Part shown: positions 1 to 41,023 of the stretch, in pieces
How positions within the stretch are numbered: the stretch's first letter is position 1
Layout: each line of letters starts with the position of its first letter
Assembly: GCA_964644245.1 (NCBI GenBank)
Contig: CAZXUR010000006.1
Span: 1-44,086 of the forward strand
Reading direction: 5' to 3'
DNA from: an uncultured archaeon
GTDB taxonomy: Archaea; Aenigmatarchaeota; Aenigmatarchaeia; CAZXUR01
Length of the DNA stretch: 44,086 nucleotides
Program-made: the position numbers and the translations under genes
Notes under the pieces: model-generated
Database searches by the model: none
Seen by the model: the letters and a program-made list of their open reading frames with translations, nothing else
Told to the model about the DNA's origin: nothing

Positions 1-1
1 A

Positions 2-763
2 ATTATAAGAAAGATTAAAGATAGAGATTCGGAAGTACTTGGTAAAATGGAAAAAGAAATGTATGGCGGTGGAGAGAAATTCTATCAACCATTAAAAGAA
101 TTCTTAAAGGACTATGCCCAGAAAGATCTAGAGAAAATACCTTACGGAGTTTATAGTGGACTGAAGAAAAATAAAATTTCTGGTATCTTTTTTTATCATA
201 AATACTTAGATGATTTTCATTTTTGGTATTTGTATGATGTAGATAATGATTCAATTATAACTAACAAAACTGAAATAATTGATTTTATATCCTGTAGAGA
301 AAATAAAAAAAGAAATATACCAAATTTCTTTGAAAGGGTATATAAAATAAATAAAGAGATAGTAAAAGAAATTGAAAAAACTTATAAAGAGCTCGAATTG
401 AGCCAGAAACAGGACTCAAGAGGAAAAGAGTTAAGTAAAAGTCGTGGTACAGTATTTGTAAATAAAATGATTGAAGATATAGAAGAGAGAATAGAATCAT
501 ATTTAGAAGATTTTCCAAACGACGATTCAATAGAGAAAGAATGGGAAAAAGTAGAGGATAAACTCTTATATGTGCCTCACACCAAAAAAAGATTACAAAA
601 ACTAAGAAAATTATGGAAAAAATATAAAAAAGATGAGGATTGGAAAAAATTAATGGAAGAAATAAGTAAATTTATGGAAGGGAAAGAACCTATAAAAAAG
701 AAGGAAATAAAACCGTTCAACAAAGAGTCATTGAAATTAATAACAATAGATTTCATTTCGTGA
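2..763 (+). CDS. hypothetical Lys/Glu-rich protein; 3' part of an ORF open to the left window edge
   Basis: The frame of the 47..763 ORF has no stop codon back to nt 2, so the gene is probably 5'-truncated by the window. No catalytic motif recognised. It ends 4 nt before 768..980. Confidence 0.5.
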   Translation: MIRKIKDRDSEVLGKMEKEMYGGGEKFYQPLKEFLKDYAQKDLEKIPYGVYSGLKKNKISGIFFYHKYLDDFHFWYLYDVDNDSIITNKTEIIDFISCRENKKRNIPNFFERVYKINKEIVKEIEKTYKELELSQKQDSRGKELSKSRGTVFVNKMIEDIEERIESYLEDFPNDDSIEKEWEKVEDKLLYVPHTKKRLQKLRKLWKKYKKDEDWKKLMEEISKFMEGKEPIKKKEIKPFNKESLKLITIDFIS

Positions 764-767
764 TATT

Positions 768-980
768 ATGGGAATAGCAGCTAAAAAGTTCGCCAAACAG
801 AAAGCAAGAATGTCTGTATTCCGTAAAGGTAAATCCCACCTCGATCAACGAGCCGAACAATTCGGCAAGTACCCAAAATGCAGAGGCCTATTCGAAGATT
901 GCCCTAAGGAAATCAAGGATCCTAAGAACCCACCCAAGGAATGTAGGAGTTGTCCTGAACTGCCTGGGAAGTATAGGTAA
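768..980 (+). CDS. small Cys-containing protein (70 aa); its C-terminus is the only intact in-frame copy of the island repeat
   Basis: ATG ORF. Two Cys pairs (KCRGLFEDC and ECRSC). Ends KNPPKECRSCPELPGKYR-stop. The last ~19 codons recur as start-less remnants five more times downstream. Confidence 0.55.
   Translation: MGIAAKKFAKQKARMSVFRKGKSHLDQRAEQFGKYPKCRGLFEDCPKEIKDPKNPPKECRSCPELPGKYR
924..980 (+). repeat. gene-end repeat copy 1 (in frame, end of 768..980): KNPPKECRSCPELPGKYR-stop
   Basis: aagaacccacccaaggaatgtaggagttgtcctgaactgcctgggaagtataggtaa. Confidence 0.9.
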
Positions 981-992
981 TTCTAAAAGAGA

Positions 993-1748
993 CTAAATTA
1001 TGGGAATCTGTGATAAAACGTTTGTATGAAGTAAGTAGAGAACGATCATAACTGCAAACGTTAAAACTGTTTTTGAATCTCTGCCCAATCTTTTAGAAGT
1101 TAACAAATCTGCCCATGTTAGAATAATCAAGAGAATGGTCAGAACGGCTATAACATAAGTAATTTTGTACATAGCATCGGTAAGAGTTAACATTCCTGCT
1201 TGTTGCATATTTGAAACACTAATCCATTGTTCGATTTTATCTCTCCATTCACCCTCCCATTTAGGTGTTGCTTCAAAATATCTTTTATAAATGTCGGAAT
1301 CCTGTTTTACTGATTCCTGACTGCAATCCAAAAATTCCAGCGGACTTGAAGAAGTTATTTGTATCTTGTAAGAACCTACAACATCAAAATCATATCTACT
1401 CTTCCAGTCAGGTCTAAGTCCTCTTTCGTATTTCGGAAAATAATAGTTTGATGCCCTGGGCTCGAGAAAAATATTATACGTCTTATTTTCTCCGATTGTC
1501 TCTCTATCTGGATTGAAAACTATGACGGTTATGGTGTTATTAATTGGTGTATCACCGAGATTAGTAAGAGTGATATTATAGTAAAACCAACCCCCAACAA
1601 AAAACTCCTTTTCACTAGTTCCAGAGATAACATCCAAGTCAATCTCAACACAATTATTACACCTCAAGCCTTGTTCAAGGCACGTATATTCTGCGAACGC
1701 CAAGCTAGGAAAAACAAGTAGGAATAATAAAATCAAAAACTTCTTCAT
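993..1748 (-). CDS. secreted / membrane-anchored protein (251 aa)
   Basis: N-terminal signal peptide MKKFLILLFLLVFPSLAFA. Two C-terminal hydrophobic helices. TATA-like gtttaaata lies between it and 1807..2112. Confidence 0.7.
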   Translation of the reverse strand: MKKFLILLFLLVFPSLAFAEYTCLEQGLRCNNCVEIDLDVISGTSEKEFFVGGWFYYNITLTNLGDTPINNTITVIVFNPDRETIGENKTYNIFLEPRASNYYFPKYERGLRPDWKSRYDFDVVGSYKIQITSSSPLEFLDCSQESVKQDSDIYKRYFEATPKWEGEWRDKIEQWISVSNMQQAGMLTLTDAMYKITYVIAVLTILLIILTWADLLTSKRLGRDSKTVLTFAVMIVLYLLHTNVLSQIPII

Positions 1749-1806
1749 GTATTAGAATGGGGGATCTAAAGTTTAAATATCTAATGGAAACTATATATTT
1801 CAGAAG

Positions 1807-2112
1807 TTACTTCACCCTCTTCCTTTTGAAAATAACATCCGCGACGGTCCTACCGTAAGACTTTCCTTTGGGTCTTATCGTAACAGTCTTCCCCCGTAGT
1901 CTGAAAAGCCTCTTCTTAACTAATCCGTAACCTCTTTCAGGAGCATCCATCCCAGCCATTCTGATAAACTGAGATCCTGCTACCCTCCTTCTAACCTTGA
2001 AGGTATCTCCATCTACTATACTTTGGACTTTTCTTCTAACAGACTTCCTTCTACGTTTAAGGGCAGCTATACTCAAAATAACATGGAAAACCGCATAAAC
2101 ATGTCGGTTCAC
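1807..2112 (-). CDS. small staphylococcal-nuclease (SNase/thermonuclease)-like protein with N-terminal hydrophobic segment
   Basis: VDGDTFKV, IRMAGMDAPE and SYGRTVADV match the SNase Ca-binding and catalytic motifs. At 101 aa it is shorter than typical SNase. Confidence 0.6.
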   Translation of the reverse strand: MNRHVYAVFHVILSIAALKRRRKSVRRKVQSIVDGDTFKVRRRVAGSQFIRMAGMDAPERGYGLVKKRLFRLRGKTVTIRPKGKSYGRTVADVIFKRKRVK

Positions 2113-2163
2113 GATTCGGCAGATGTCGTTAGAAATTAAAATTTCGGAGTAAATGCTGTAGAT

Positions 2164-2403
2164 ATGGGTATAAGAGACTTGCCGACTGTGATTATTGGCC
2201 TAGTAATAGTAGTTCTTGCTCTCGGATTTGGAACACGTATTTTGACTGAAATCGAGGAGACAAACGGTGAAGAAGTTCAAAATGTAACTCAGGGAGGCAT
2301 AAATACATTGAAGATATTTACACAATCCCCAGATACAATAATACTTGTATTCATTATCATAATAACAATTCTCGGTGGGTTGAAATATTTTGGAAAAATC
2401 TAA
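2164..2403 (+). CDS. small two-helix membrane protein (79 aa)
   Basis: Two hydrophobic stretches flank an acidic loop. AT-rich TATA-like tract gaaattaaaattt lies upstream. Confidence 0.5.
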   Translation: MGIRDLPTVIIGLVIVVLALGFGTRILTEIEETNGEEVQNVTQGGINTLKIFTQSPDTIILVFIIIITILGGLKYFGKI

Positions 2404-2417
2404 ATCTTCAAGACCTC

Positions 2418-2474
2418 AAGAACCCTCCTAAAGAATGCAGGAGTTGTCCTGAACTGCCTAAGAAGTATGGGTAA
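2418..2474 (+). repeat. gene-end repeat copy 2 (no start codon): KNPPKECRSCPELPKKYG-stop
   Basis: aagaaccctcctaaagaatgcaggagttgtcctgaactgcctaagaagtatgggtaa. Similarity to copy 1 extends back to about 2403, directly after the stop of 2164..2403. It is in a different frame from that ORF. Confidence 0.9.
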
Positions 2475-2547
2475 GTTTACCGGAAATAGCGGCAATGTGC
2501 ACTCGAAGAGTTTTAAAGTCTGAATCACTATAATGTACTAGGTAGAT

Positions 2548-3705
2548 ATGAGTATACAAAAGACTCTCATGCCCGATTCAAAGGCAGTCAGAGAGATAGG
2601 CGGTAAAAAAATTAATTTTCGAGAGGGAGTTTTCTGGATACAGAAACAGAGGCAGAAACATAGTCTCCATTACGTAACACCTTACCAGGCAAGTTTTGCA
2701 CCACAGATTCCTGAATTTTTCATCAGAAGATACTCGAGTCCAGGAGACATGGTTTTGGATCCTTTCTGTGGCAGGGGAACGGCAGTCCTGGAAGCAAACC
2801 AAAGCGATAGGACGGGTATAGGTATTGATGTATCACCTCTTGCTATAGAGATCGCTAAGGCAAAGTTAAGAAATGTTGAAATCGAAGAAGTAAAAAGAAG
2901 GTTGAAAGAAATAGATTTCTCAAAAGAAAAGAAAGAAGGATTCAAAAGATTCGAAGATATTTACCATCCTAAAACATACTCTCAGATAGTAAATCTAAAA
3001 GAACAGCTAAAGGTCGATAAAATAGATAATTTGATAAGGGCCGTTGTGTTGGGCAGGCTTCATGGGCATTCCCCGGGATTTTTTTCTGTATTCACATTCA
3101 ATGTGATCAGTCCTTCGCCTAAATCAATTAAGAAACAAAGCAAAAAACATGGAAGTAAGCCTGAGTTTAGGGACGTTGTACCAAGAATTTTAAAAAAGGC
3201 CAAAACTGTCCTTAAAGACAAAGTAAAAGAACAGAAAAAATCAAAAATATATAGAAAAGATTCCAGGAATCTTCCTCTAGATAGAAATTCCATTGACTTC
3301 ATAATAACCTCACCCCCGTTTCTTGACACAGTAAACTATATAGATGATAACTGGATCAGACTGTGGTTTTTAGATGTTGACATAGACAAACTAAGAAAAG
3401 AAATAGTTCAAACGAGTGATTTGAAGAAATATAAAAAATTCGTCATGAAAAGTATGAAAGAAATGAATAGAGTGCTGAAACCTGGTAAAAACTGTGTCAT
3501 AGAAGTTGGTGACGTGACACATAAGTCTAAGAAGCTCAATCTGGATGAAGTTGTAGTAAAATTGGCCGAAAAATCTGGATTTTCTGTGGAGGAGATACTA
3601 ATCAACTATATGTCTTCACCTAAAATATCAAAAGCCTTTGGAAAAGATTCTAAAGATGTGGGTACACAGACCAATCGTTGTGTAATCCTAAGGAAACCTT
3701 TATAA
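2548..3705 (+). CDS. SAM-dependent amino-methyltransferase, probably DNA N4-cytosine/N6-adenine type
   Basis: AdoMet motif VLDPFCGRGTAVLEA near the N-terminus and catalytic motif IV IITSPPF about 180 aa later (motif I before IV, long intervening region). TATA ttttaaag at ~2511. Confidence 0.75.
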   Translation: MSIQKTLMPDSKAVREIGGKKINFREGVFWIQKQRQKHSLHYVTPYQASFAPQIPEFFIRRYSSPGDMVLDPFCGRGTAVLEANQSDRTGIGIDVSPLAIEIAKAKLRNVEIEEVKRRLKEIDFSKEKKEGFKRFEDIYHPKTYSQIVNLKEQLKVDKIDNLIRAVVLGRLHGHSPGFFSVFTFNVISPSPKSIKKQSKKHGSKPEFRDVVPRILKKAKTVLKDKVKEQKKSKIYRKDSRNLPLDRNSIDFIITSPPFLDTVNYIDDNWIRLWFLDVDIDKLRKEIVQTSDLKKYKKFVMKSMKEMNRVLKPGKNCVIEVGDVTHKSKKLNLDEVVVKLAEKSGFSVEEILINYMSSPKISKAFGKDSKDVGTQTNRCVILRKPL

Positions 3706-3728
3706 GAATTATTCTCTGAATAACAGTC

Positions 3729-4361
3729 ATGACAAAAAAGGTTGAATTAAAAATACGTGACCCTAAGAACATATACCATGAAGTTGCTTTAGCACTAGCA
3801 CCCCATAGAAAGAAGAAGGAAGGCTCGATAGAATTCATTGTAGAAGGAAGCATAAAAAATCCAATAATAGGGATAAGGTACCCAGGAAAAAAGTTAGTGA
3901 AGAGGGAATTGAAGGTTAAAAGAAAAAATTCAGCTGAATGGGGAAATTTATATGATTTCTATGTAGTTCCGTATGTTGATGGTAAAGAAGAGAAAAAGGA
4001 AGACTTTACTTTTGAAAAAATATTAAAAGACTACGAAAAGAATAAAAGAAAAAGTGAAAAGTTTTGGAAATGTGTTGAAGAAATATATAAAGAAAATGTA
4101 CTCACAAGCAAACCTCCAAAGTTGCCTGGTATAGACTCAAAGTTGTTTCTGCTTGTATTGAAATGGCTGTGGATAGAAGAAGATTTCAATTATAAATATA
4201 ACTGGAAAGACGTAGAATCTCCGGTTAGGTATGTCTTGATAAGTAGAACTGATAATTTGATGAGTAAAGGTGCCGGAAGGGCAAAGTTTTTTTCTGCTAT
4301 GATTTTATTGAGATATGGGTTTACGTTTGATGAAGTAAAAAAAATAATTCCTTTATATTAA
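3729..4361 (+). CDS. hypothetical Lys-rich protein (210 aa); candidate partner (restriction endonuclease?) of the methyltransferase
   Basis: Starts 23 nt after the MTase stop on the same strand. No motif recognised. The function is suggested only by adjacency. Confidence 0.5.
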   Translation: MTKKVELKIRDPKNIYHEVALALAPHRKKKEGSIEFIVEGSIKNPIIGIRYPGKKLVKRELKVKRKNSAEWGNLYDFYVVPYVDGKEEKKEDFTFEKILKDYEKNKRKSEKFWKCVEEIYKENVLTSKPPKLPGIDSKLFLLVLKWLWIEEDFNYKYNWKDVESPVRYVLISRTDNLMSKGAGRAKFFSAMILLRYGFTFDEVKKIIPLY

Positions 4362-4408
4362 ACCCAGAGTGCAAAACGTGTCCGGAACTGCCGGGGAAGT
4401 ATAGGTAA
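4361..4408 (+). repeat. gene-end repeat copy 3 (no start codon): NPECKTCPELPGKYR-stop
   Basis: aacccagagtgcaaaacgtgtccggaactgccggggaagtataggtaa. Begins at the stop of 3729..4361, in the -1 frame relative to it. Confidence 0.9.
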
Positions 4409-4447
4409 CTGTTCTAATCAGTCTCCAAAAGAAAGAGTGGAAAATAA

Positions 4448-4906
4448 TCAGGCCTTCACAACGATTGTGTGGGCCAGCATGTCTCCGAGCCTCTGATTCT
4501 TTTTTGAAAACCATATCAACAAAACACCGATGAGATATAGGAGTTGGCCATCGATAATCCTCAGGAGATTCCTGATGAAGGCGTGCCACACGGATGGAGG
4601 GCCTTTCGCGTCTTCAGTCACGACCCTTATGCCTAACATCTTCTTTCCTGGGGTCTGGCCTGTCTTGCTCTCAAAGTATGTGAAATAGCCCCAAAACAAA
4701 AACAAAAACATCAGTGGTGTTATAAAAACAACGATAAATTCTTTGATTAATGTTACATTGGCTGAGCTTAGCAACAGCGTGGTAAAAAATGCTGTAAAGA
4801 AAATCGCGGTTATAACAAAACCAAGTATGAGAGCGAATATTATCATCATGTCGACTAAGAACGCTATGGCTCTGCTTCTGATTCTAGCATGTCTTATCTT
4901 TACCAC
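4448..4906 (-). CDS. RDD-family membrane protein
   Basis: Three hydrophobic helices plus ESKTGQTPGKKMLGIRVV and a C-terminal RLGD motif typical of RDD domains. Confidence 0.7.
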   Translation of the reverse strand: MVKIRHARIRSRAIAFLVDMMIIFALILGFVITAIFFTAFFTTLLLSSANVTLIKEFIVVFITPLMFLFLFWGYFTYFESKTGQTPGKKMLGIRVVTEDAKGPPSVWHAFIRNLLRIIDGQLLYLIGVLLIWFSKKNQRLGDMLAHTIVVKA

Positions 4907-4933
4907 ATTAGTAATTGTAAATTCTATATAAAT

Positions 4934-4966
4934 AGATGTCCTGAACTGCCTAAGAGGTATAGGTAA
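4934..4966 (+). repeat. gene-end repeat copy 4 (shortest): RCPELPKRYR-stop
   Basis: agatgtcctgaactgcctaagaggtataggtaa. It follows a minus-strand gene, so it cannot be the tail of the neighbouring ORF. Confidence 0.85.
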
Positions 4967-5102
4967 CTATGTCATGAGATATCGTTGTGTTTTCTCTTCA
5001 ATTCTCTCCATTTCTTTTCATCCAATATCATACATCATCTAAAACAATTTTGTATTCAAGGCACATATCTGTCTGCCACTCCCAGTAGTGGTGAAGGATA
5101 TA

Positions 5103-5114
5103 TTTATATAAATA
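5103..5114 (+). promoter_or_regulatory. TATA box of the precursor / radical-SAM / protease operon
   Basis: tttatataaata is centred ~26 nt upstream of the ATG at 5134 (leaderless-type spacing). A short hairpin ccact-cccagt-agtgg lies just upstream. Confidence 0.5.
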
Positions 5115-5133
5115 TAACTACGTTATCTGATGT

Positions 5134-5301
5134 ATGTCTAAGGCTTTGATCAAGCAGGAAGAGTTGGGGAGTCTGACTGAGATACAGAGAGAAGTAGTCG
5201 AAAGTGGGTTGGTAAAGAATAACAACGATTACACCGACATAAGCTGTTATAGCGATTACAGTAACTGGGGACAGTACAGCGACTACAGAGGCAATAAATA
5301 A
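5134..5301 (+). CDS. candidate RiPP precursor peptide (55 aa)
   Basis: Below the ORF-track cutoff; translated by hand as MSKALIKQEELGSLTEIQREVVESGLVKNNNDYTDISCYSDYSNWGQYSDYRGNK. TATA box upstream. The stop is 12 nt before the radical SAM start. Charged leader-like N-terminal half and aromatic-rich repetitive C-terminal half. Confidence 0.55.
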   Translation: MSKALIKQEELGSLTEIQREVVESGLVKNNNDYTDISCYSDYSNWGQYSDYRGNK

Positions 5302-5313
5302 AAAGTCAGACTT

Positions 5314-6402
5314 ATGCTAACTTGTATATTGAAGGTTACGGAAGATTGTAATCTCTCCTGCAAATACTGTTATGTTCCCGAAAACTCTCCCAAAGGAATA
5401 TTATCTTCCGAAACTCTTGAAGAAAGCCTAAAACAGGTCCTAAGAACTGAAGACGAGAGAGTTGACTTTATATGGCACGGAGGTGAACCGCTTCTTTCTG
5501 GTGCTGAACTTTATTTGGATGGAATGGAATATATGGAAGAATACAATGAAAATGATGCCATAATAAAAAATAAAATTCAAACCAATGGGACCCTCATAAA
5601 AGACGAACATGTTGATCTATTTGAGGACTACGATTTTGGTGTGGGCATAAGCCTTGACGGGCCAAAAGAAATTCAGGATTATCAAAGAATTCATCCCAAT
5701 GGCCGCGGTTCTTATGAGGAAGTGATGAACGGGATAAATAAACTTAAAGAAAGAGAAGTGGACTTTGGGATATTATCGGTCTTAACAAGAAAAGGTCTTG
5801 GAAAAGAAAAGGAAATATATGAAGAAATTAAATCACACACAGACCACGGAAAATTGAATTTCTTTCTTCCCGAAGGGCATGGAAGAAAATACGAAGACAG
5901 ACTCGGAATAGACAACAAAGATTTTTTCAAACTTTTTAGAAATTTTTATGAGTTGTGGAAAAATGAAGAAAATACTGACTTTCGTTTGAGTCCACTAGTG
6001 GAGATAGTCACCAGTTTTGTTTCTGAAAATAACGATAGAAAAAATTCTCTTTGTGCCTTTAACAATTCATGCCTCAGTAACGGATATATTTCTGTAAGTC
6101 CTCACGGCGATGTTTATCCTTGTGGGAGAGTCAGCGGGATTGAAAGGTATAAGCTCGGGAATGTTAACGAGAAAGAAAATTTGATAGAAAGAATAAGAAG
6201 AGAAGATTTGCCAGAAATGAATAGAAAAAGGAACGACTCAATAGAATCCTCCTGCGGTGATTGTAATTATCTAGAAATTTGTTATGGTGGCTGTGCCCAT
6301 GACTCCCAATACGAATATGAAGATTTAATTCACAGCACCCCTTACTGCAAAGGGAGAAAAGACTTGTTTAGACACATAGAGGGGGATATGAGAAGTGACT
6401 AA
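5314..6402 (+). CDS. radical SAM enzyme with full SPASM domain (peptide-modifying maturase type)
   Basis: CNLSCKYC (CxxxCxxC) at residues 12-19. GGEPLL. C-terminal SPASM pattern C-x11-G-x4-C followed by CGDCNYLEICYGGC (Cx2Cx5Cx3C) and a final Cys. No N-terminal RRE-like extension. Confidence 0.9.
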   Translation: MLTCILKVTEDCNLSCKYCYVPENSPKGILSSETLEESLKQVLRTEDERVDFIWHGGEPLLSGAELYLDGMEYMEEYNENDAIIKNKIQTNGTLIKDEHVDLFEDYDFGVGISLDGPKEIQDYQRIHPNGRGSYEEVMNGINKLKEREVDFGILSVLTRKGLGKEKEIYEEIKSHTDHGKLNFFLPEGHGRKYEDRLGIDNKDFFKLFRNFYELWKNEENTDFRLSPLVEIVTSFVSENNDRKNSLCAFNNSCLSNGYISVSPHGDVYPCGRVSGIERYKLGNVNEKENLIERIRREDLPEMNRKRNDSIESSCGDCNYLEICYGGCAHDSQYEYEDLIHSTPYCKGRKDLFRHIEGDMRSD

Positions 6403-6973
6403 CTGGTTAAAAGAGGGTGAACAGACCAAGATAACCCCGAAAATCAAGGAGATAGGTAAGAAACTACAGAAGAAGAGCCAGTATGATGCTCATTTGGTTC
6501 TCAATATTCTGGAATGGGTGAGGAAGAATATTCGCCTGGAAAGAAAAGAGGAAATTAAGAAAAAGTTATTCAGGAAAAGGACTTCTGACAAGATAATTAG
6601 AGATGGTTACGCCACCGGATGCACGGACCTTGCACTCGCATTTATACCCATAGCCAGGTCGTGCGATATACCCACCAAATACGTGGAGACAGTTAACAAA
6701 AAGTGGCTAAAAAAGGCAACGAAAGAGGTAAGCATGATCAAAAAAGGACAAATCAAAGGTCACGTGGTAGCAGAATGCAAAATCGGGAACAAATGGTACG
6801 TAGTGGATGTGGATTCGGGGACTGTGGTTATAAAAATAGAAAATACATCCTTCAATAGAAATTTTGAGGTAGTTGCTGAAGGTTTGGACAGCTGGGATCT
6901 CGGAGTGAAAAGCCTGCAGGATTTGAAAAATTTCTTTCAAAACAAGTTACAGGACGTGTCCGGAACTGCCTAA
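6395..6973 (+). CDS. transglutaminase-like cysteine protease (candidate leader peptidase)
   Basis: Cys-His-Asp core pattern: GYATGCTDLALAFIPIARSCDIP, GHVVAE, WYVVDVD. Overlaps the radical SAM gene by 8 nt. Confidence 0.65.
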   Translation: MTNWLKEGEQTKITPKIKEIGKKLQKKSQYDAHLVLNILEWVRKNIRLERKEEIKKKLFRKRTSDKIIRDGYATGCTDLALAFIPIARSCDIPTKYVETVNKKWLKKATKEVSMIKKGQIKGHVVAECKIGNKWYVVDVDSGTVVIKIENTSFNRNFEVVAEGLDSWDLGVKSLQDLKNFFQNKLQDVSGTA

Positions 6974-6986
6974 GAATTATGGGTAA
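6951..6986 (+). repeat. gene-end repeat copy 5: RTCPELPKNYG-stop
   Basis: aggacgtgtccggaactgcctaagaattatgggtaa. It overlaps the end of 6395..6973, which reads it in another frame (..VSGTA-stop). Confidence 0.9.
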
Positions 6987-6991
6987 AAACA

Positions 6992-7690
6992 TTATTTTTT
7001 AATTTCCTTCAGAATCAGGTCGACGAGTTTTTTCGTATCAGTGAAGTTGGTCATTGGTGTCTTCTCGAGGGCGAAGACACCCTTGAAGGAGCTGATGAAG
7101 TTATCCTTGCGTATGTCTCTCCTGATTTTGAGGAGGTTTGTTCTTAAGACAGTTGTATCTCCTCTCAAGACGTGTTTCACGGTTTTGTCGAAGTCTATCC
7201 CAGAACAGAGGGCGACTATGTCTCTGATATCCGTGAACCTGGCAGCATGCATCTTTACAGCAATCTGAAGTTCCTTCTCTGGTATCCTTACCAGGGCCTT
7301 GTCTTCGATCCCGGTTATCTCCTTTGTTATGGAGTTCTTCCAGAAGTAGCTGAAGCTCCATGAGGCATCCGTGTCCCTCGAGGTCAAGGCGTTTACCATC
7401 AGGTCGACCGTCACAGGGAACTCTGTCTTCGTGGTGTAAGACTCGAACCAGCCCTCGTATTCGCTCTCCAGCTCCCTGAAGTCTTTCTTCACAAAATTCA
7501 CCTTCTTGAGGACTTCCCTGAATTTTGGCATGGACTTGTCCTGGACGACTATGTCAGCATCCACCGAGAACCTGTGTTTGAAGGCTGAGACGGCGTAACC
7601 GCCTACCAAGATGAACTTAAGTTTCTTCTTTTGGAACTGATTGAGGACTCGGAAGATATTGCTCTCCCTGTCTATGAAAGCCTTAAACAT
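6992..7690 (-). CDS. nucleotidyltransferase-fold protein, AbiEii/DUF1814-like (tentative toxin)
   Basis: LVGGYAVSAFKHRFSVDADIVV fits the GG-x13-DxD minimal nucleotidyltransferase signature. 8-nt overlap with the upstream wHTH gene. Confidence 0.55.
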   Translation of the reverse strand: MFKAFIDRESNIFRVLNQFQKKKLKFILVGGYAVSAFKHRFSVDADIVVQDKSMPKFREVLKKVNFVKKDFRELESEYEGWFESYTTKTEFPVTVDLMVNALTSRDTDASWSFSYFWKNSITKEITGIEDKALVRIPEKELQIAVKMHAARFTDIRDIVALCSGIDFDKTVKHVLRGDTTVLRTNLLKIRRDIRKDNFISSFKGVFALEKTPMTNFTDTKKLVDLILKEIKK

Positions 7691-8336
7691 CTGAATTCTC
7701 CCTGTATTTGATCTTCAAACCCAAGCCGTACATCTCGTCCAACATTTCCAAGGCAGGCTGGAAGTTGTAGACATGTTTTTTCGCGAAGGCAACCGCGTCC
7801 TTCAAAGGCAAGACAGGTGTTTTGTCTATTGACTCTGATTTGATCTCAGAAACCGGGAACAAGAAGAAGTAAATGCCTGCCATCGGTTTGTCAGTCGTAT
7901 GTTTGATGGATAAATTAGAAAAGAACTTTCTCCACTTAGACAAATCCTTTTTCAAGACGTTTATGAAAATCGGATAGTTCTCTGCAGACCTGCCTATGTT
8001 GTAACCGCCTTTGGTCCATATGAAAATTGCATCAGTCGACGTGAAGCAGTAAGGTAATCCAATAAAATTCGGCAAGTCATAAGCGGTCTTCAAGGACAAG
8101 TGCTGCCCCAAAACGATTTTTATCAAAGAAAAGAACTTTTTGTAGATGTTGCTGTCCTTGTTAATTCTGACCCTGTTTCCTTCTCTGGTTAAAACACCCA
8201 ATTCTCTTAACTGTTCTACCCATTGGTACGTCCAGCCGTAGGAAATCTTTGTTTTTCTAGAAATTTCTCTAATCGAATCACCATCTCTTGCGGCCAACAA
8301 GATTTTCGCTGAATACGGATTAATGACCTCTATCAT
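7683..8336 (-). CDS. winged-helix DNA-binding protein, AbiEi-like (tentative antitoxin/regulator)
   Basis: N-terminal wHTH-like IREISRKTKISYGWTYQWVEQLRELGVLTREGNRVRIN plus a ~140 aa C-terminal domain. Operonic with 6992..7690. Confidence 0.55.
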   Translation of the reverse strand: MIEVINPYSAKILLAARDGDSIREISRKTKISYGWTYQWVEQLRELGVLTREGNRVRINKDSNIYKKFFSLIKIVLGQHLSLKTAYDLPNFIGLPYCFTSTDAIFIWTKGGYNIGRSAENYPIFINVLKKDLSKWRKFFSNLSIKHTTDKPMAGIYFFLFPVSEIKSESIDKTPVLPLKDAVAFAKKHVYNFQPALEMLDEMYGLGLKIKYRENSDV

Positions 8337-8359
8337 ATTATCATTATAGTGATAATTAG

Positions 8360-8366
8360 TTTAAAT
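8360..8366 (-). promoter_or_regulatory. TATA box for 7683..8336
   Basis: The minus strand reads catttaaac ~27 nt upstream of the ATG at 8336. Confidence 0.5.
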
Positions 8367-8490
8367 GTTTTTCGGTTGTACGTTGCCGTTATTACCGATA
8401 GAGTTCTGCGTTAACTTGCCAAATCATAAAAAGGTGAAAAACAAACCTCCTGAATGCAAAATCTGTCCGGAGTTGCCGGGAAGCATATAA
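8365..8490 (+). CDS. possible 41-aa ORF ending in repeat copy 6
   Basis: ATG at 8365, in frame with ..KNKPPECKICPELPGSI-stop. The ATG sits inside the divergent gene's TATA box, so expression is doubtful. Confidence 0.25.
   Translation: MFFGCTLPLLPIEFCVNLPNHKKVKNKPPECKICPELPGSI
8440..8490 (+). repeat. gene-end repeat copy 6 (most diverged): NKPPECKICPELPGSI-stop
   Basis: aacaaacctcctgaatgcaaaatctgtccggagttgccgggaagcatataa. Five silent differences from copy 1 within the six C-P-E-L-P-G codons. Confidence 0.8.
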
Positions 8491-8520
8491 TTACTTAACT
8501 CTCGACTTCTAGGCCCTTGT

Positions 8521-8649
8521 ATGAAGATGTTGTTCGTCTGTTCACAGGGCATGTACAGGAGCCCGACCGCTCGGGACTTATGGAAGCAATTGCATCCGGA
8601 GGATGAAGTAGAGTCGGTGGGCGTGCTGGCTGTGGACAATGATGATTAA
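8521..8649 (+). pseudogene. N-terminal fragment of a low-molecular-weight phosphatase / ArsC-like gene (42 codons)
   Basis: MKMLFVCSQGMYRSPTARDLW carries the C-x5-R-S P-loop of LMW-PTP/ArsC. The ORF stops after 42 aa, whereas full-length family members are ~150 aa. It lies at the island/core boundary. Confidence 0.4.
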
Positions 8650-8711
8650 GAAACATTCTCCAAAACAGAAATGTTTAAATATAATTAAATTATATTATTA
8701 GAGATGATTGT

Positions 8712-8927
8712 ATGAAGGAATTTGAGGCCAAGCCAAAGAAATGGGGCAATTCTTTAGGTGTCACCATACCCAAGGAAATCGTGGAAGAGGAAGGTGTGAG
8801 TACCGGAAAGAAGGTGAAGGTCTTCATCCTTGGCAGGAAGAAGGACGTCAAGGACGTGTTCGGGTCGTTGGAGTGGAGGAAACCAACTCAGAAAATTATG
8901 GACGAGATAGATAAAGGTTGGGAGTAA
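8712..8927 (+). CDS. vapB: AbrB/SpoVT-fold antitoxin (VapB type)
   Basis: KKWGNSLGVTIPKEIVEEEGV swapped-hairpin motif. TAATG overlap with the PIN gene. Confidence 0.8.
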   Translation: MKEFEAKPKKWGNSLGVTIPKEIVEEEGVSTGKKVKVFILGRKKDVKDVFGSLEWRKPTQKIMDEIDKGWE

Positions 8928-9289
8928 TGATTTACTTCTTCGATACGTACGCATTTATCGAGGTAATCAAAGGTAATCCGAGGTACGAGAAATACTTGGA
9001 AGTAGACAAGGTGACCACAAGACTGAATCTGATGGAGTTGTACTTTGCACTCCTGAGGGATTTCAACAGCAAGACGGCGGGCAAGTATTACGACTTCTTC
9101 TCAGTTTTTGCCATACCGGTCGAGGACTCGACTGTGAAAAAGGCGATGTTCTTCAAGTTGAAGAACAAGAGAGAGAAACTCAGCTACGTGGACTGTATCG
9201 GTTACATGATTGCCTTGGAGAACGGAATAAAGTTCTTGACTGGCGATGAAAAGTTTGAGGACAAAAAAGGCGTTGAATTCGTCAAGTAG
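8927..9289 (+). CDS. vapC: PIN-domain ribonuclease toxin (VapC type)
   Basis: MIYFFDTYAFIE (first acidic residue) and LSYVDCIGYMIALENGIKFLTGDEKF. The ATG at 8927 overlaps the vapB stop; the track start at 8918 is a TTG. Confidence 0.8.
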   Translation: MIYFFDTYAFIEVIKGNPRYEKYLEVDKVTTRLNLMELYFALLRDFNSKTAGKYYDFFSVFAIPVEDSTVKKAMFFKLKNKREKLSYVDCIGYMIALENGIKFLTGDEKFEDKKGVEFVK

Positions 9290-9292
9290 AAT

Positions 9293-9308
9293 TTTAAAAG
9301 ACTTTCAG
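9293..9308 (+). repeat. 16-nt perfect direct repeat, left copy (TTTAAAAGACTTTCAG)
   Basis: Identical to 9960..9975. Contains a TATA-like TTTAAAA. Confidence 0.8.
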
Positions 9309-9338
9309 AAACTGTCTGGGTTTGCCTGCTACGTAGAG

Positions 9339-9944
9339 TTAACTTCCTAGTTCCTTTTCTTCGAATTTCCTAAAATCTATCGGATCTCTATAGGGACATT
9401 CTTTGCACATAGCCATGTATTCTTCCGCGGCCTTGACTAAATGCTCGTTTCCTTCTGAGGAATCGTGTTTCTCTATGTCGACGAGGATATCATATTGGTC
9501 GTCCCTGCATGGATTTCTCAATGAATGTCTTTGGCCGGGAATCATACTCCTTCCGTACACACAGCAGTTTGTCATCAGTCCCCTTAAATCTCTCAACAGA
9601 TCTTCCTGATTCACGAGGAGGCTTCTATCCCCTTCAACAAGGCTGTGATTGTCGGCCAGATGTTCTACTATGTTTTTGAACCTTGAAATTCCAAGTCTGG
9701 TCCTGTCCCTATTCGTAATCTGAGAAACCTCTGAAAATTTCTCAAGCTCGGATAAAGCCAGGTCCAAATATTTTCTGCTGGGCATCTCCTTCTCGGGTAG
9801 AGACGGAATATGTTCTCTATCTGGATCCGGGACATAACTCATCAAACCCAACAAATACTTGCCTTCGATGATACCGGTTATTGAATTGAGCTCGTTAAGC
9901 AGACTTTCATCGATGTCGTGTCTGTTCGTCTTAAGCATAGACAA
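9339..9944 (-). CDS. hypothetical protein (201 aa) with Cys-containing C-terminal part
   Basis: Long ORF. No motif recognised. The Met at 9938 gives better spacing to the TATA at ~9960. Confidence 0.55.
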   Translation of the reverse strand: MSMLKTNRHDIDESLLNELNSITGIIEGKYLLGLMSYVPDPDREHIPSLPEKEMPSRKYLDLALSELEKFSEVSQITNRDRTRLGISRFKNIVEHLADNHSLVEGDRSLLVNQEDLLRDLRGLMTNCCVYGRSMIPGQRHSLRNPCRDDQYDILVDIEKHDSSEGNEHLVKAAEEYMAMCKECPYRDPIDFRKFEEKELGS

Positions 9945-9959
9945 GGGATAACAGTTAAG

Positions 9960-9975
9960 TTTAAAAGACTTTCAG
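9960..9975 (+). repeat. 16-nt perfect direct repeat, right copy (TTTAAAAGACTTTCAG)
   Basis: Identical to 9293..9308. Lies between 9339..9944 and 9972..10196. Confidence 0.8.
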
Positions 9976-10196
9976 GACTTTTTCAACCGGGCGTATCCTT
10001 CGACTGATTTGAGAAGGTGGCGGTCTTGAAGGTAAGATTCAAACGAATCGTCCTCTGTCTCGCGGAGTCTGTCGAGGAGCGTGTCCAGGACTTCCGAGTC
10101 TTCATGGTCCTCCAGAGTCCTGTTCAAGGCGTACTCCACGTTTGATTCGTAGTCACCACCCTTCCCGGCCTGGTTCAGGTACAGGCGGAAGGTCAT
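9972..10196 (-). CDS. hypothetical acidic protein (74 aa)
   Basis: ORF only. Same strand and immediately upstream of 9339..9944. Confidence 0.4.
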   Translation of the reverse strand: MTFRLYLNQAGKGGDYESNVEYALNRTLEDHEDSEVLDTLLDRLRETEDDSFESYLQDRHLLKSVEGYARLKKS

Positions 10197-10297
10197 GAGA
10201 ATGGTTATGGACTTCTCCTTGGAAGGGATAAGACTGATTGTTCCGGAAGGATAAAGGATTCAAACTAGTTTTATATATCACCTAAGGAACTATTCTT

Positions 10298-38469: not shown

Positions 38470-38934
38470 CTACCAAAGGGAAGAAACGATTTCTTCCTTT
38501 CCTTCCTCACATACGAATACTTGCCACATCTTCCTGATGTCCTCTTCATCCGTGTCAAAGGAAGCTTCCATTCCGATGGTCCCGAAGAGTCCTTCGTCCA
38601 GTTTGAAATCTTCCGGAATCCTGAAGGAGTATTCGGTTGAATAAGTTTTCCCGGGTTTCACCAGAACATCTTCCTCCTTTTCACCAAAGCCGTATTCATC
38701 TTTTATGCGGAACGTACCTTGATACTGACGCTTGGACCTGTTTCTTATGCCCACTTCATATTCTAACAACTCGCCGGGGTTGAATTTATCATCCAAATCC
38801 GGGTCATCCACTTCCTTCAGTGACTGGAAGTAAAGGAATATTTCCCTCTGGTCGTAGTCTTTTCTGACTTTCGTACTTCGCTTCTTCTTTTTCTTACCGC
38901 CAAAAAACAGAAACATGATGTTACTCCCCGTCAA
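38470..38934 (-). CDS. hypothetical protein (about 148-154 aa)
   Basis: ORF between tfb and srp54. The Met at 38916 avoids overlap with the tfb stop. No motif recognised. Confidence 0.5.
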   Translation of the reverse strand: MTGSNIMFLFFGGKKKKKRSTKVRKDYDQREIFLYFQSLKEVDDPDLDDKFNPGELLEYEVGIRNRSKRQYQGTFRIKDEYGFGEKEEDVLVKPGKTYSTEYSFRIPEDFKLDEGLFGTIGMEASFDTDEEDIRKMWQVFVCEEGKEEIVSSLW

Positions 38935-40051
38935 TTTTTATATTTTTATCCTTTGTACCGGAAATCCTCTTGATAAGGGAGTCAGAATAACTGTACTCCT
39001 CCAGAAAGTCCTCCATAAAATTCGGATTCTCATTCCCGAAGGCAATCAAGTCCTTTCTCCTTTCCCTGATGGTGACTTCGGTCACACCCGAGGCTTCAGC
39101 CACTTCCTTTTGAGTGAGGTCTATCTCCTCCATCTTCTCCGGGATTTCCGTGAATTTCTGCGGATATTTGGACCCCAGAAAATCCTTCAGTTTCTTCTTT
39201 TCCAGGCAGGACACGTGATAAACCCCGCCTGCAGCTATTCCAGTGGGACTCTTTCCTGAAGTATCTTTGGTGCCATGATACTCTCCCAGAAACTTTTCGA
39301 TTTCTATCTGCAGAGGACCGGGAAGGCCGAGTTCAGAGGCAAACTTTGGCACGTACTTCAAGGGAGTATCAATCGGCACGTCCCTGTCCAGTTTACGGCC
39401 TATCTCCTTGTAATTTCCAACAATCTTGTTGTGGTCTATGGAAGTGTACTCCTCGAAGTTCCTGGGAGTGCATGGAATTCCCAGTTCACGGCAAGTCAGA
39501 TACATGACAGAAACAGCCACCTTCTCTATGCTCCTGCCTCTCATCTTCCCGTCTTCGATTACTTGTCTGTATGCATGGGCAGCATGTTCACGCACCTTGG
39601 GCGGAAGTTCCATGGCTGAAGCGAGTTGTCTCATGTATGTAAATGCCTTTACCATGTTCCTGTCCTTCGAGTCTTTCAGTCTCGAGCGCCGGTCCCACTT
39701 CCTCAGGCGATGCATATGTGACCTCTGCTTCGGCTTGAGGGGTCTTCCTCTTCCGTCAGTCCTTTTTCCTATCTCTGTGGAAAGCCCCCGGTCGTGGTAG
39801 GATTCTATCATGGGAAGGCCGGCCCTGTTTCTTTTCTCGTTTTGCTCTGCGTCAAAGGCAAGCCATTCAGGACCCGAATCCAGCAAATGGTCTTCCAGGA
39901 CCAGTCCGCAGTCTGAACAAACCAGTTCACTCCTCTCGGCATCCATATATATTGACTTAGAACCACAATCAGGACATCCGGGCCTTTTCCTCTCATCCAC
40001 TTCATAGTCAGATGACATAGAAGGAGATTTTGATTTAACTTTTAAAGACAT
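38921..40051 (-). CDS. tfb: transcription initiation factor TFB, long paralogue (376 aa)
   Basis: Zn ribbon CPDCGS..CSDCG, B-reader SGPEWLAFDAEQ, two cyclin repeats. Has an N-terminal extension, an insertion in repeat 2 and a ~45-aa C-terminal tail. Confidence 0.85.
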   Translation of the reverse strand: MSLKVKSKSPSMSSDYEVDERKRPGCPDCGSKSIYMDAERSELVCSDCGLVLEDHLLDSGPEWLAFDAEQNEKRNRAGLPMIESYHDRGLSTEIGKRTDGRGRPLKPKQRSHMHRLRKWDRRSRLKDSKDRNMVKAFTYMRQLASAMELPPKVREHAAHAYRQVIEDGKMRGRSIEKVAVSVMYLTCRELGIPCTPRNFEEYTSIDHNKIVGNYKEIGRKLDRDVPIDTPLKYVPKFASELGLPGPLQIEIEKFLGEYHGTKDTSGKSPTGIAAGGVYHVSCLEKKKLKDFLGSKYPQKFTEIPEKMEEIDLTQKEVAEASGVTEVTIRERRKDLIAFGNENPNFMEDFLEEYSYSDSLIKRISGTKDKNIKIDGE

Positions 40052-40075
40052 CGGACAGGAGAACGTTGATTGTCG

Positions 40076-41023
40076 TCAAACATCGATTCCCATGTTCTCT
40101 GCTATTTCCTTGTACCTGTTCCTGATCGTTACTTCGGTCACGTCCGCGACCTCGGCGACCGCTTTTTGTGTCACTCCCTTCCCGTCCTCAAGAACGCTGG
40201 CCATGTAAAGGACAGAAGCAGCAATCCCCTGGGGGCTCTTACCACTGGAAAGCCCTCTTTTTACCACCTCTTCAGCCATTCTTACCGCCTTCATGGAAAC
40301 GGAGTCATTCACCCCCAGTTCACACGCAAATCTGGGTATGTATTCCAAAGCGTTGGGAGGAGCTACCTTTATATTCAGTTTCTGGGTCAATAACCTGAAA
40401 GCCCTTCCCACGTCTTTCCTGTCGCACTTGGTCACATCAGCTATCTCGTCCAGTGTGCGTGGGATTCCACTCTGTCTGCAGGACGCGTACACCGCACCGG
40501 CAGCCACATCCTCGATGGACCTGCCTCTTAGGAGGTTGTTCTCAACTGTTTGTCTATACAGAAAGGCGCCCCTTTCCTTGACATATCGGGGCAGATGAAG
40601 CTGGCTGGATATCCTGTCTATCTCGTTGAGTGCGAAAGACAGGTTCCTATCCTTGGAATCCTGCACCTTCGAACGCTTGTCCCACTTCCTGAGACGGCGC
40701 ATACGTGTCCTGGTCTCTGGCTTGATGTTATTCCCGTATATGTCTCTATCACGATGGTCAATCATGGTGTAAAGTCCGCGGTCGTGCATGGTTTCTGTGG
40801 TGGGTGCCCCGACCCTGTTTCTTTTCTCCCTCTGCTCTGCGTTAAACGCGCGCCATTCGGGTCCCGGGTCCATGAGTCGGTCCTCTATCACCAGATCGCA
40901 CCCCGAACAAACCAACTCTCCGTGTCGGTAGTCCCTTTCCAGGACTCTGGAACCACATTCGGGACAATTGGTTTCTTCTCCAACGTCTATCCTCCTATCA
41001 AACTCATCTAGTGCAATGGACAT
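40076..41023 (-). CDS. tfb: transcription initiation factor TFB, canonical paralogue (315 aa)
   Basis: CPECGS..CSGCD, PGPEWRAFNAEQREKRNRVG, two cyclin repeats, C-terminal HTH VTEVTIRNRYKE. Confidence 0.9.
   Translation of the reverse strand: MSIALDEFDRRIDVGEETNCPECGSRVLERDYRHGELVCSGCDLVIEDRLMDPGPEWRAFNAEQREKRNRVGAPTTETMHDRGLYTMIDHRDRDIYGNNIKPETRTRMRRLRKWDKRSKVQDSKDRNLSFALNEIDRISSQLHLPRYVKERGAFLYRQTVENNLLRGRSIEDVAAGAVYASCRQSGIPRTLDEIADVTKCDRKDVGRAFRLLTQKLNIKVAPPNALEYIPRFACELGVNDSVSMKAVRMAEEVVKRGLSSGKSPQGIAASVLYMASVLEDGKGVTQKAVAEVADVTEVTIRNRYKEIAENMGIDV

Follow-up and report, generated by a model that had tools for sequence, protein, structure and literature searches.

Six copies of a gene end and the modules between them

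We analyzed contig CAZXUR010000006.1 of an uncultured archaeon of the Aenigmatarchaeota, taken from an NCBI metagenome-derived assembly; the window referred to throughout is this entire contig of 44,086 nucleotides (nt). A gene for a small protein with four cysteines, which begins after the first 767 nt of the contig, is followed by five short groups of unrelated genes (hereafter modules), and behind each module lies a partial copy of the 3' end of the small gene. The whole array sits in AT-rich DNA, with a GC content of 0.27-0.43 over positions 1-8490 against 0.50-0.51 past 10.3 kb, which confirms the AT-rich island described in an earlier note on this contig. The same note had reported six copies of the gene end, all on the plus strand. 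A pattern search with the 14-nt core TGTCCKGARYTGCC, allowing at most one mismatch, recovered exactly these six, at 951, 2445, 4379, 4937, 6957 and 8464, and no further copy on either strand anywhere in the 44 kb. The number expected by chance is 0.06, and six matches were reached in 0 of 100 shuffles. The intact gene and the six copies, with the allele types defined in the next section, are the following.

768..980, plus strand: intact gene for a 70-amino-acid (aa) basic protein with cysteines C38, C45, C59 and C62, the proposed insertion target; GC 0.45, GC at third codon positions (GC3) 0.44.
924..980, plus strand: copy 1, the functional gene end ..KNPPKECRSCPELPGKYR followed by the stop; allele type a1.
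2406..2474, plus strand: copy 2, a 22-codon remnant, LQDLKNPPKECRSCPELPKKYG and stop; type a2; tblastn E=4e-09.
4361..4408, plus strand: copy 3, a remnant, NPECKTCPELPGKYR and stop; type b1; E=4e-05.
4934..4966, plus strand: copy 4, the shortest remnant, (N)RCPELPKRYR and stop; left half of type a, right half type 2-like.
6948..6986, plus strand: copy 5, a remnant, YRTCPELPKNYG and stop; type b2, with the left half as in copy 3 and the right half as in copy 2.
8428..8490, plus strand: copy 6, the most divergent remnant, KKVKNKPPECKICPELPGSI and stop (in-frame translation KNKPPECKICPELPGSI and stop); E=8e-05.

A repeat finder placed five of the copies in a single family of 37 nt (spacings 1494, 1934, 558 and 2020 nt), and for copies 1 and 2 the repeat alignment reaches 62 nt at 85% identity. 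Read in the frame of copy 1, all six copies give ..C-P-E-L-P-(G/K), and the upstream E-C-x-x is retained in four. Where similarity begins varies from copy to copy, between 10 and 22 codons ahead of the stop; in all six it ends at the stop codon. The segments common to copies are 33-66 nt long. Adjacent copies are 63-89% identical and their longest exact runs are about 15-17 nt. Since exact runs of about 17 nt are shorter than assembler k-mers, strain variants could not have been chained through the copies, and we rejected an assembly artefact as the origin of the array.

Only copy 1 is the end of an intact gene, and the list of open reading frames (ORFs) bears out the earlier note on this point (768..980, 70 aa). 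The other five had been described as start-less, which holds for copies 2-5 and fails for copy 6, found within a 41-aa ORF that starts with ATG (8365..8490) and has neither the first two cysteines nor the front half of the small protein. Copy 6 also has a tail unlike the others and is located at the border to more core-like DNA. Copy 2 begins 3 nt past the stop of a 79-aa gene and in a different frame, and the first base of copy 3 is the last base of the stop codon of a methylase partner gene. Six direct copies, of which the leftmost alone is joined to the 5' part of the gene, are the layout expected of integration at the 3' end of a gene.

The five modules that the copies delimit contain the following genes.

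981..2405: module 1, a 251-aa membrane protein (993..1748, minus strand), a 101-aa SNase-like protein (1807..2112, minus strand) and a 79-aa membrane protein (2164..2403, plus strand); GC3 0.34.
2475..4360: module 2, an N6/N4 DNA methyltransferase (2548..3705) and its 210-aa partner (3729..4361), both on the plus strand; GC3 0.33.
4409..4933: module 3, a single gene for an RDD-family membrane protein (4448..4906, minus strand; PF06271, 1.5e-26); GC3 0.52.
4967..6947: module 4, a 55-aa peptide (5134..5301), a radical SAM/SPASM enzyme (5314..6402) and a transglutaminase-like protein (6395..6973), all on the plus strand; GC3 0.41.
6987..8427: module 5, a nucleotidyltransferase with weak AbiEii similarity (6992..7690) and a 217-aa helix-turn-helix (HTH) protein (7683..8336), both on the minus strand; GC3 0.61.

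Part of the gene contents proposed in the earlier note stands. The methylase of module 2 (PF01555, 2.6e-22; MTase_II, 8e-80), the RDD protein and the radical SAM, SPASM and transglutaminase-like matches of module 4 (PF04055, 3e-22; PF13186, 9e-07; PF01841, 8e-11) are clear. Its 'nuclease' and 'AbiEii' assignments fall under curated cut-offs (SNase-like, 5e-05; PF08843, 3e-04, and PADLOC AbiEii, 6e-06), the evidence for the contents of modules 1 and 5 is weak, and neither the membrane proteins of module 1 nor the 210-aa methylase partner have a family match. The 217-aa protein of module 5 matches HTH_23/28.

The minus strand encodes five of the 11 module genes, and TATA-like boxes are located in front of module genes; the box of the RDD gene abuts copy 4. 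The transglutaminase-like ORF (6395-6973) ends within copy 5, whose sequence, read in another frame, supplies its final six codons and stop (..VSGTA). The modules are compact (0.5-2 kb), with cargo genes 0-170 nt from the flanking copies, which argues against their being random deletion remnants of larger elements. Each of the five module proteins present in the protein collection is a singleton at 90% identity, and the collections contain no relative with at least 90% protein identity that would allow strains to be compared. A search of the viral protein collections with the 210-aa partner and the HTH protein returned nothing.

Divergence, mosaic structure and order of the copies

The copies differ from one another in the way that coding sequences do. 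Variable alignment columns occur at 5, 6 and 16 of 23 codons for codon positions 1, 2 and 3, respectively, and third positions are significantly enriched over the others (16/23 and 11/46, P = 0.0005, Fisher test). The enrichment is confined to the coding frame and disappears in the two shifted frames. Summed over pairs of copies, silent and replacement changes in CPELPG number 29 and 21 in frame, compared with 3 and 33, and 0 and 45, in the other two frames; within C-P-E-L-P there are four variable sites, all of them silent. The individual counts on which the earlier note had based its suspicion of translated repeats were reproduced as well: four of the six codons changed between copies 1 and 2 are silent, as are both of the two changed between copies 1 and 3 (in CPELPGKYR), and copies 1 and 6 differ by five silent changes in CPELPG. 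Variation biased toward third positions indicates that each copy was once selected as the terminus of a functional gene.

The copies are, moreover, mosaics, each combining one of at least two left halves with one of at least two right halves. On the left, copies 1, 2 and 4 have type a (AGT/AGA TGT CCT), and copies 3 and 5 have type b (ACG TGT CCG). The right halves are of type 1 in copies 1 and 3 (GGG AAG TAT AGG) and of type 2 in copies 2 and 5 (AAG AAx TAT GGG), with copy 4 intermediate. Left and right alleles occur in all four combinations, within a small sample of five copies and six characters, and this places the crossover in the invariant GAACTGCC. Such hybrid junction copies, with left and right halves of differing origin, are what tandem accretion leads one to expect. 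Pairing the two halves that flank each module, as excision of a circle would do, gives a1, b2, a1 and b2; this coherence has a chance of about 1 in 3 and is only suggestive. Along the array, the tails switch back and forth between alleles (GKYR, KKYG, GKYR, KRYR, KNYG), and four-gamete conflicts are detectable too. For a single evolving gene to have left these copies as 'fossils' of itself, it would have had to revert several times at G<->K and R<->G, and this model is disfavoured. Taken with the silent bias, the mosaics argue that the copies are probably imported and recombined gene ends, and not the products of local duplication followed by decay. The earlier note had likewise set local duplication aside, and both the coding constraint under which the copies diverged and their recombinant make-up are in line with it.

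The array has a polarity in base composition as well. GC3 is 0.23 in the helicase gene to the left of the small gene, 0.34, 0.33, 0.52, 0.41 and 0.61 in modules 1 to 5, 0.59 to the right of copy 6 and 0.66-0.73 in the core of the contig. Over 16 genes, it rises with the distance from the intact small gene (Spearman rho 0.79, P = 0.0003). This gradient fits insertion at the intact gene with the newest module first, and older modules drifting toward the composition of the host.

The small-protein family and the flanking DNA

To characterize the small protein, we relied on a full HMMER scan of 1.84 billion representatives; a word-indexed protein search had returned the query itself only. The scan delineated a family of about 14 small proteins (60-117 aa) with the common motif KYPxCxGxFxDCPxEIxDPKNPPxxCxxCP, four invariant cysteines and tails that vary past CxxCP. 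The family has no match in Pfam, NCBIfam or PDB, and the AlphaFold2 model of the small protein is poor (mean predicted local distance difference test score, pLDDT, 57), with an N-terminal helix only. An alignment of four family members found a single, already known locus in the metagenomes, and a viral scan with the family found nothing. In one distant lineage the small gene is uninterrupted and lies in a housekeeping-type locus, between a nitroreductase gene and the SecY/ribosomal operon. A search for orthologues and uninterrupted loci, which the earlier note had suggested, is thus answered in the affirmative on both counts.

A restriction-modification gene directly adjoins the small gene in eight of the 11 other lineages, and two further contigs are too short to judge. 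These neighbors lie upstream, downstream or divergent, and include DpnII, TaqI, N6_N4 and D12 methylases, Eco57I-type, TaqI_C and type I M/S genes (loci L016, L021, L022, L023/24, L025/26, L027/28, L031-33 and L034). In L016, too, the DNA around the small gene is AT-rich and lies at the end of a contig; a methylase/DpnII pair flanks the gene on one side and a ParE toxin-antitoxin pair on the other. The family may therefore mark a hotspot anchor of defence islands, or may be an accessory or regulatory protein tied to restriction-modification.

A second, independent gene-end remnant occurs within the family. In L029, the minus strand at 395-460, just upstream of the small gene of that contig (496-792), carries an inverted 50-nt remnant of the last codons of this gene, identical at 44 of 50 positions with a 2-nt indel and reading KYFRPK/KRELPEFIRKMYEEGKG and stop. 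It is the only gene-end remnant found in the 12 related contexts. L027 and L028, which encode an identical small protein, diverge about 130 nt past its stop, inside the next gene, and this lineage offers no support for insertion at the gene end. Inspected by eye, that next gene looks like the start of a GGGP synthase in L028 and is truncated in L027.

Two features flank the array directly.

2..763, plus strand: 3' part of an SNF2-type helicase gene, truncated by the contig end; GC 0.27, GC3 0.23; its stop lies 5 nt before the small gene.
8712..8927 and 8918..9289, plus strand: MazE-type antitoxin and PIN toxin, to the right of copy 6.

The helicase fragment has no Pfam match of its own and 55 homologues (best identity 62%), many of which contain Helicase_C (PF00271). 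Among them is an entry called 'C-terminal helicase domain-containing protein, partial [Ca. Anstonellales archaeon]', and the closest, at 62%, comes from a Ca. Anstonellales (DPANN) assembly. The homologues are found in DPANN archaea and Nitrospirota and are mostly short (142-437 aa); both contexts inspected, the window and the locus of the closest relative (L035), are truncated by a contig end. These observations suggest that the helicase gene moves horizontally and is possibly multi-copy or strain-variable. A search of a plasmid collection with the fragment gave no match. L035 has no small gene and no synteny to the window; in it, an Orc1/Cdc6 gene (1724-2713) comes after the helicase fragment at the contig start, and the island there may be near a replication origin.

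To the right of copy 6, positions 8491-10280 form a transitional zone (GC 0.43-0.45). Besides the MazE/PIN pair, it contains a 74-aa ORF and the gene of a 201-aa protein that weakly matches a C2H2-type zinc finger. Neither the pair nor the rest of the zone is bounded by a gene-end repeat. The zone may be older island DNA. The remaining contig is ordinary archaeal chromosome, with two TFB genes and those for Rad50/Mre11/HerA, SRP54, FtsY, exosome subunits, a proteasome subunit, SBDS, prefoldin, eIF6 and L31e. The TFB (TFIIB) genes are neighboring paralogues on the minus strand (38921-41023); DNA repeats there, 65-148 nt long, 72-73% identical and spaced by about 990-1056 nt, point to an ancient tandem duplication. 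There is no tRNA gene in the window.

Proposed serial insertion at a gene 3' end and its alternatives

We propose that modules without an integrase accumulated in tandem at the 3' end of the gene for the small, putative zinc-finger protein, a reading that we consider to be evenly balanced between right and wrong. Each module would have entered as a circle that carried cargo genes with their own promoters and one att-like segment, the latter mimicking the 10-22 terminal codons of the host gene. The exchange would have occurred in the conserved core TGTCC.GAACTGCC, the coding sequence for C-P-E-L-P. The 5' part of the host gene would thereby be joined to the incoming gene end, leaving the protein intact, while the previous gene end and all older modules would be pushed to the right. 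Five such rounds would produce the intact gene followed by five modules of increasing age, each with a remnant behind it, and copy 6, beside the core chromosome, would be the original tail of the gene. The enzyme would most likely be a tyrosine-type integrase that acts in trans and is encoded off this contig. We infer the circular intermediates, site-specific as opposed to homologous recombination, and both the existence and the identity of the recombinase; the repeats, their coding-type divergence and mosaicism, the polarity and composition gradient of the array, and the gene family with its uninterrupted locus are observed. The variable start points of the copies, combined with their common end at the stop, fit gene-end mimics of differing length borne by the elements.

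The earlier note had also read the locus as serial capture at the 3' end of the gene. The direct repeats, the intact leftmost copy, the mosaics, the order in composition and the orthologues agree with that reading; a recombinase in the ORFs scanned, a second array and a circular form, which it would lead one to look for, were not found.

Several observations weigh against serial insertion. No domain of an integrase or other recombinase was detected in the ORFs scanned across the 44 kb, and the earlier remark that no recombinase is visible thus holds for those of the whole contig. The flanks of the copies, 200 nt to each side, share no arm-type motif, and by inspection the core has no clear dyad symmetry. 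Pattern scans of genome and viral DNA for a module, an array or an attP-like sequence elsewhere returned chance matches only. For the pattern TGTCCNGARYTGCCNRRRARNTAT, these were 13 single matches in genome contigs, all bacterial, and two single matches in viral contigs, neither of which extends; the pattern fixes silent sites, so its negative is weak. There is no presence/absence polymorphism to compare, the module proteins found being singletons at 90% identity. The GC3 gradient is non-monotonic (module 3 is above module 4), and different donors could mimic it. Elsewhere in the family the restriction-modification neighbor is often upstream of the small gene, which integration at the 3' end alone leaves unexplained, and in L022, where a restriction gene comes after the small gene, no remnant was detected past that restriction gene. 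Finally, the small gene has a GC3 (0.44) below that of the core and its left neighbor also looks foreign, so that its status as 'host' gene is not secure.

We tried and rejected two other classes of mobile unit. Xer/dif modules (IMEX, pdif) have a 28-bp site made of two inverted arms and a 6-bp spacer; the copies have no dyad and no stable fold, and all are direct. A casposon or transposon was rejected for want of terminal inverted repeats and, by Pfam, of a Cas1 or transposase gene. The sole transposon-type match is a weak IS630-like HTH (1e-03, at 18 bits against a cut-off of 100).

The same layout could arise with no dedicated recombinase if circles, looped out of the arrays of related strains through exchange between homologous gene-end copies, re-inserted at the 3' end of the gene by homologous, Campbell-type single crossovers. 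We regard this as unlikely, although it accounts directly for the window having neither a recombinase nor arm sites nor a dyad, and although homologous crossovers between shared segments of 33-66 nt explain the mosaic copies equally well. At 63-89% identity and with exact runs of about 15-17 nt, the copies are a poor substrate for homologous recombination. The inferred crossovers, moreover, all fall in one short core and not along the longer homology between copies 1 and 2, and the first circle bearing a gene end devoid of its 5' part would still need an origin.

Alternatively, the remnants could be decayed paralogues, each module having once carried a full-length small gene at its right border whose 5' part was later deleted. 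The habits of the family speak for such an origin: where the small gene borders on a methylase, specificity or restriction gene (the 8 of 11 lineages above), it often lies just downstream of it, at a gap of 0-200 nt, and the order methylase, restriction enzyme, small gene in L016 resembles module 2 with copy 3 behind it. Only 5 nt separate the intact copy itself from the helicase gene before it, and divergence of the coding type is expected of paralogues. Five independent deletions would be required, each of which would have removed the first 50-60 codons and the promoter, kept the last 10-22 codons and the stop, and ended flush with a cargo gene. The left/right allele mosaic would be left unexplained, modules 3 to 5 are not restriction-modification systems, and one lineage has the gene in a housekeeping context with no restriction-modification neighbor. 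This origin is, in our judgement, quite unlikely.

A very unlikely third possibility is serial insertion with long target duplication, known from bacterial restriction-modification units, in which each insertion duplicated the current end of the resident gene and the remnants form a time series. Variable-length direct repeats of more than 30 bp do flank units with no mobility genes here, as in the published cases (PMC2853133), silent-biased change is expected between time points, and the outermost copy, copy 6, is the most divergent. Against this, the alternating tail alleles and the four-gamete conflicts would demand repeated two-nucleotide reversals in one lineage, and the known repeats are near-identical (43-45/46 and 417/423; PMC2853133) where adjacent copies here are 63-89% identical. 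The known cases are moreover single, and those here are serial and mosaic, with most modules not restriction-modification units; module 2 is such a unit. No archaeal case passed the published screen (PMC2853133).

A classical integron, or an integrase-less cluster of attC sites that overlaps a coding-like motif, has next to no likelihood: short cassettes of one to three genes with a recurring site, and a newest-first order resembling insertion at attI, do recall integrons, which are known in metagenome-assembled archaeal genomes (PMC9668308), but the DNA folds of the six copies with their flanks are unremarkable (z-scores -0.10 to 0.66), there are no inverted repeats at or near the copies or at the module ends, the window has no Rfam match at the gathering threshold or at E<=1, the site is translated and ends in a stop, genes on both strands have their own promoter regions, and none of the ORFs scanned matches Phage_integrase, as IntI would, on a contig that starts 767 nt before the intact gene. 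The integron-like alternative of the earlier note is accordingly not borne out.

The reading of serial insertion at the gene end has parallels in several known systems. In streptococci, integrative and conjugative elements, integrative mobilizable elements and cis-mobilizable elements accrete site-specifically at the 3' ends of fda, rpsI, rpmG and other genes, and integrase-less elements bounded by att sites stand there in tandem and are mobilized in trans. Such arrays differ from the present one in being bacterial and linked to conjugation, and they normally include an element that bears an integrase. Among thaumarchaeal integrated elements, 14 of 68 lie in the 3'-distal region of protein genes, one of which encodes a Zn-finger protein; the elements supply a new stop codon, and arrays arise by re-use of the site (PMC6563490). 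They resemble the modules described here in targeting the 3' end of a protein gene, in supplying replacement codons and a stop, in their flanking direct repeats and in site re-use. They are, in contrast, proviral, plasmid-like or conjugative elements of 10-100 kb with an integrase and att sites of a median 17 bp (PMC6563490), whereas the modules are 0.5-2 kb, integrase-less and bounded by repeats of 33-66 nt with silent-site divergence.

In the tycheposon islands of Prochlorococcus, repeated integration at one site pushes older elements inward and leaves partial tRNAs (10.1101/2020.12.28.424599). The push-along order, the partial target copies between cargo modules and the defence and niche cargo are common to both systems; the target of tycheposons is a tRNA, and they have tyrosine recombinases and replication genes, unlike the protein gene and the lack of a visible recombinase here. 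Integron arrays (PMC9668308) are similar in forming a row of tiny cassettes with a recurring site, the newest nearest to the insertion point, and in their defence and toxin-antitoxin cargo. They differ in that attC is folded, single-stranded and untranslated, and in that integron cassettes are mostly promoterless and co-oriented and require IntI; none of these traits was seen here. Restriction-modification units with long target duplications share with the array their variable direct repeats of more than 30 bp and the lack of a mobility gene (PMC2853133); their repeats have not diverged as those of the array have. What is unusual in the present locus is the combination of cassettes of only 0.5-2 kb, the lack of an integrase in or near five consecutive modules, and long, translated repeats diverged at silent sites.

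A bolder possibility, of which we are rather doubtful, is that the locus represents a platform of DPANN-type archaea dedicated to cassette capture. The translated 3' end of the zinc-finger gene would then serve as a double-stranded equivalent of attI and attC, a recombinase of a new kind would string together self-expressed defence and accessory cassettes, and the adjacency to restriction-modification genes in other lineages would be the footprint of this system.

If the serial-insertion reading is true, very small archaeal genomes would collect and shuffle defence genes with neither integrons nor tRNA targets. The units would be of cassette size, with their own promoters, and each would supply the gene with a new end. 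Such islands, and possibly a new recombinase nearby, could be sought with a simple key, the truncated 3' ends of a small conserved gene. The four-cysteine family linked to restriction-modification may matter as much as the array itself, and the ideas that it is an anchor of defence islands or an accessory or regulatory protein can both be tested.

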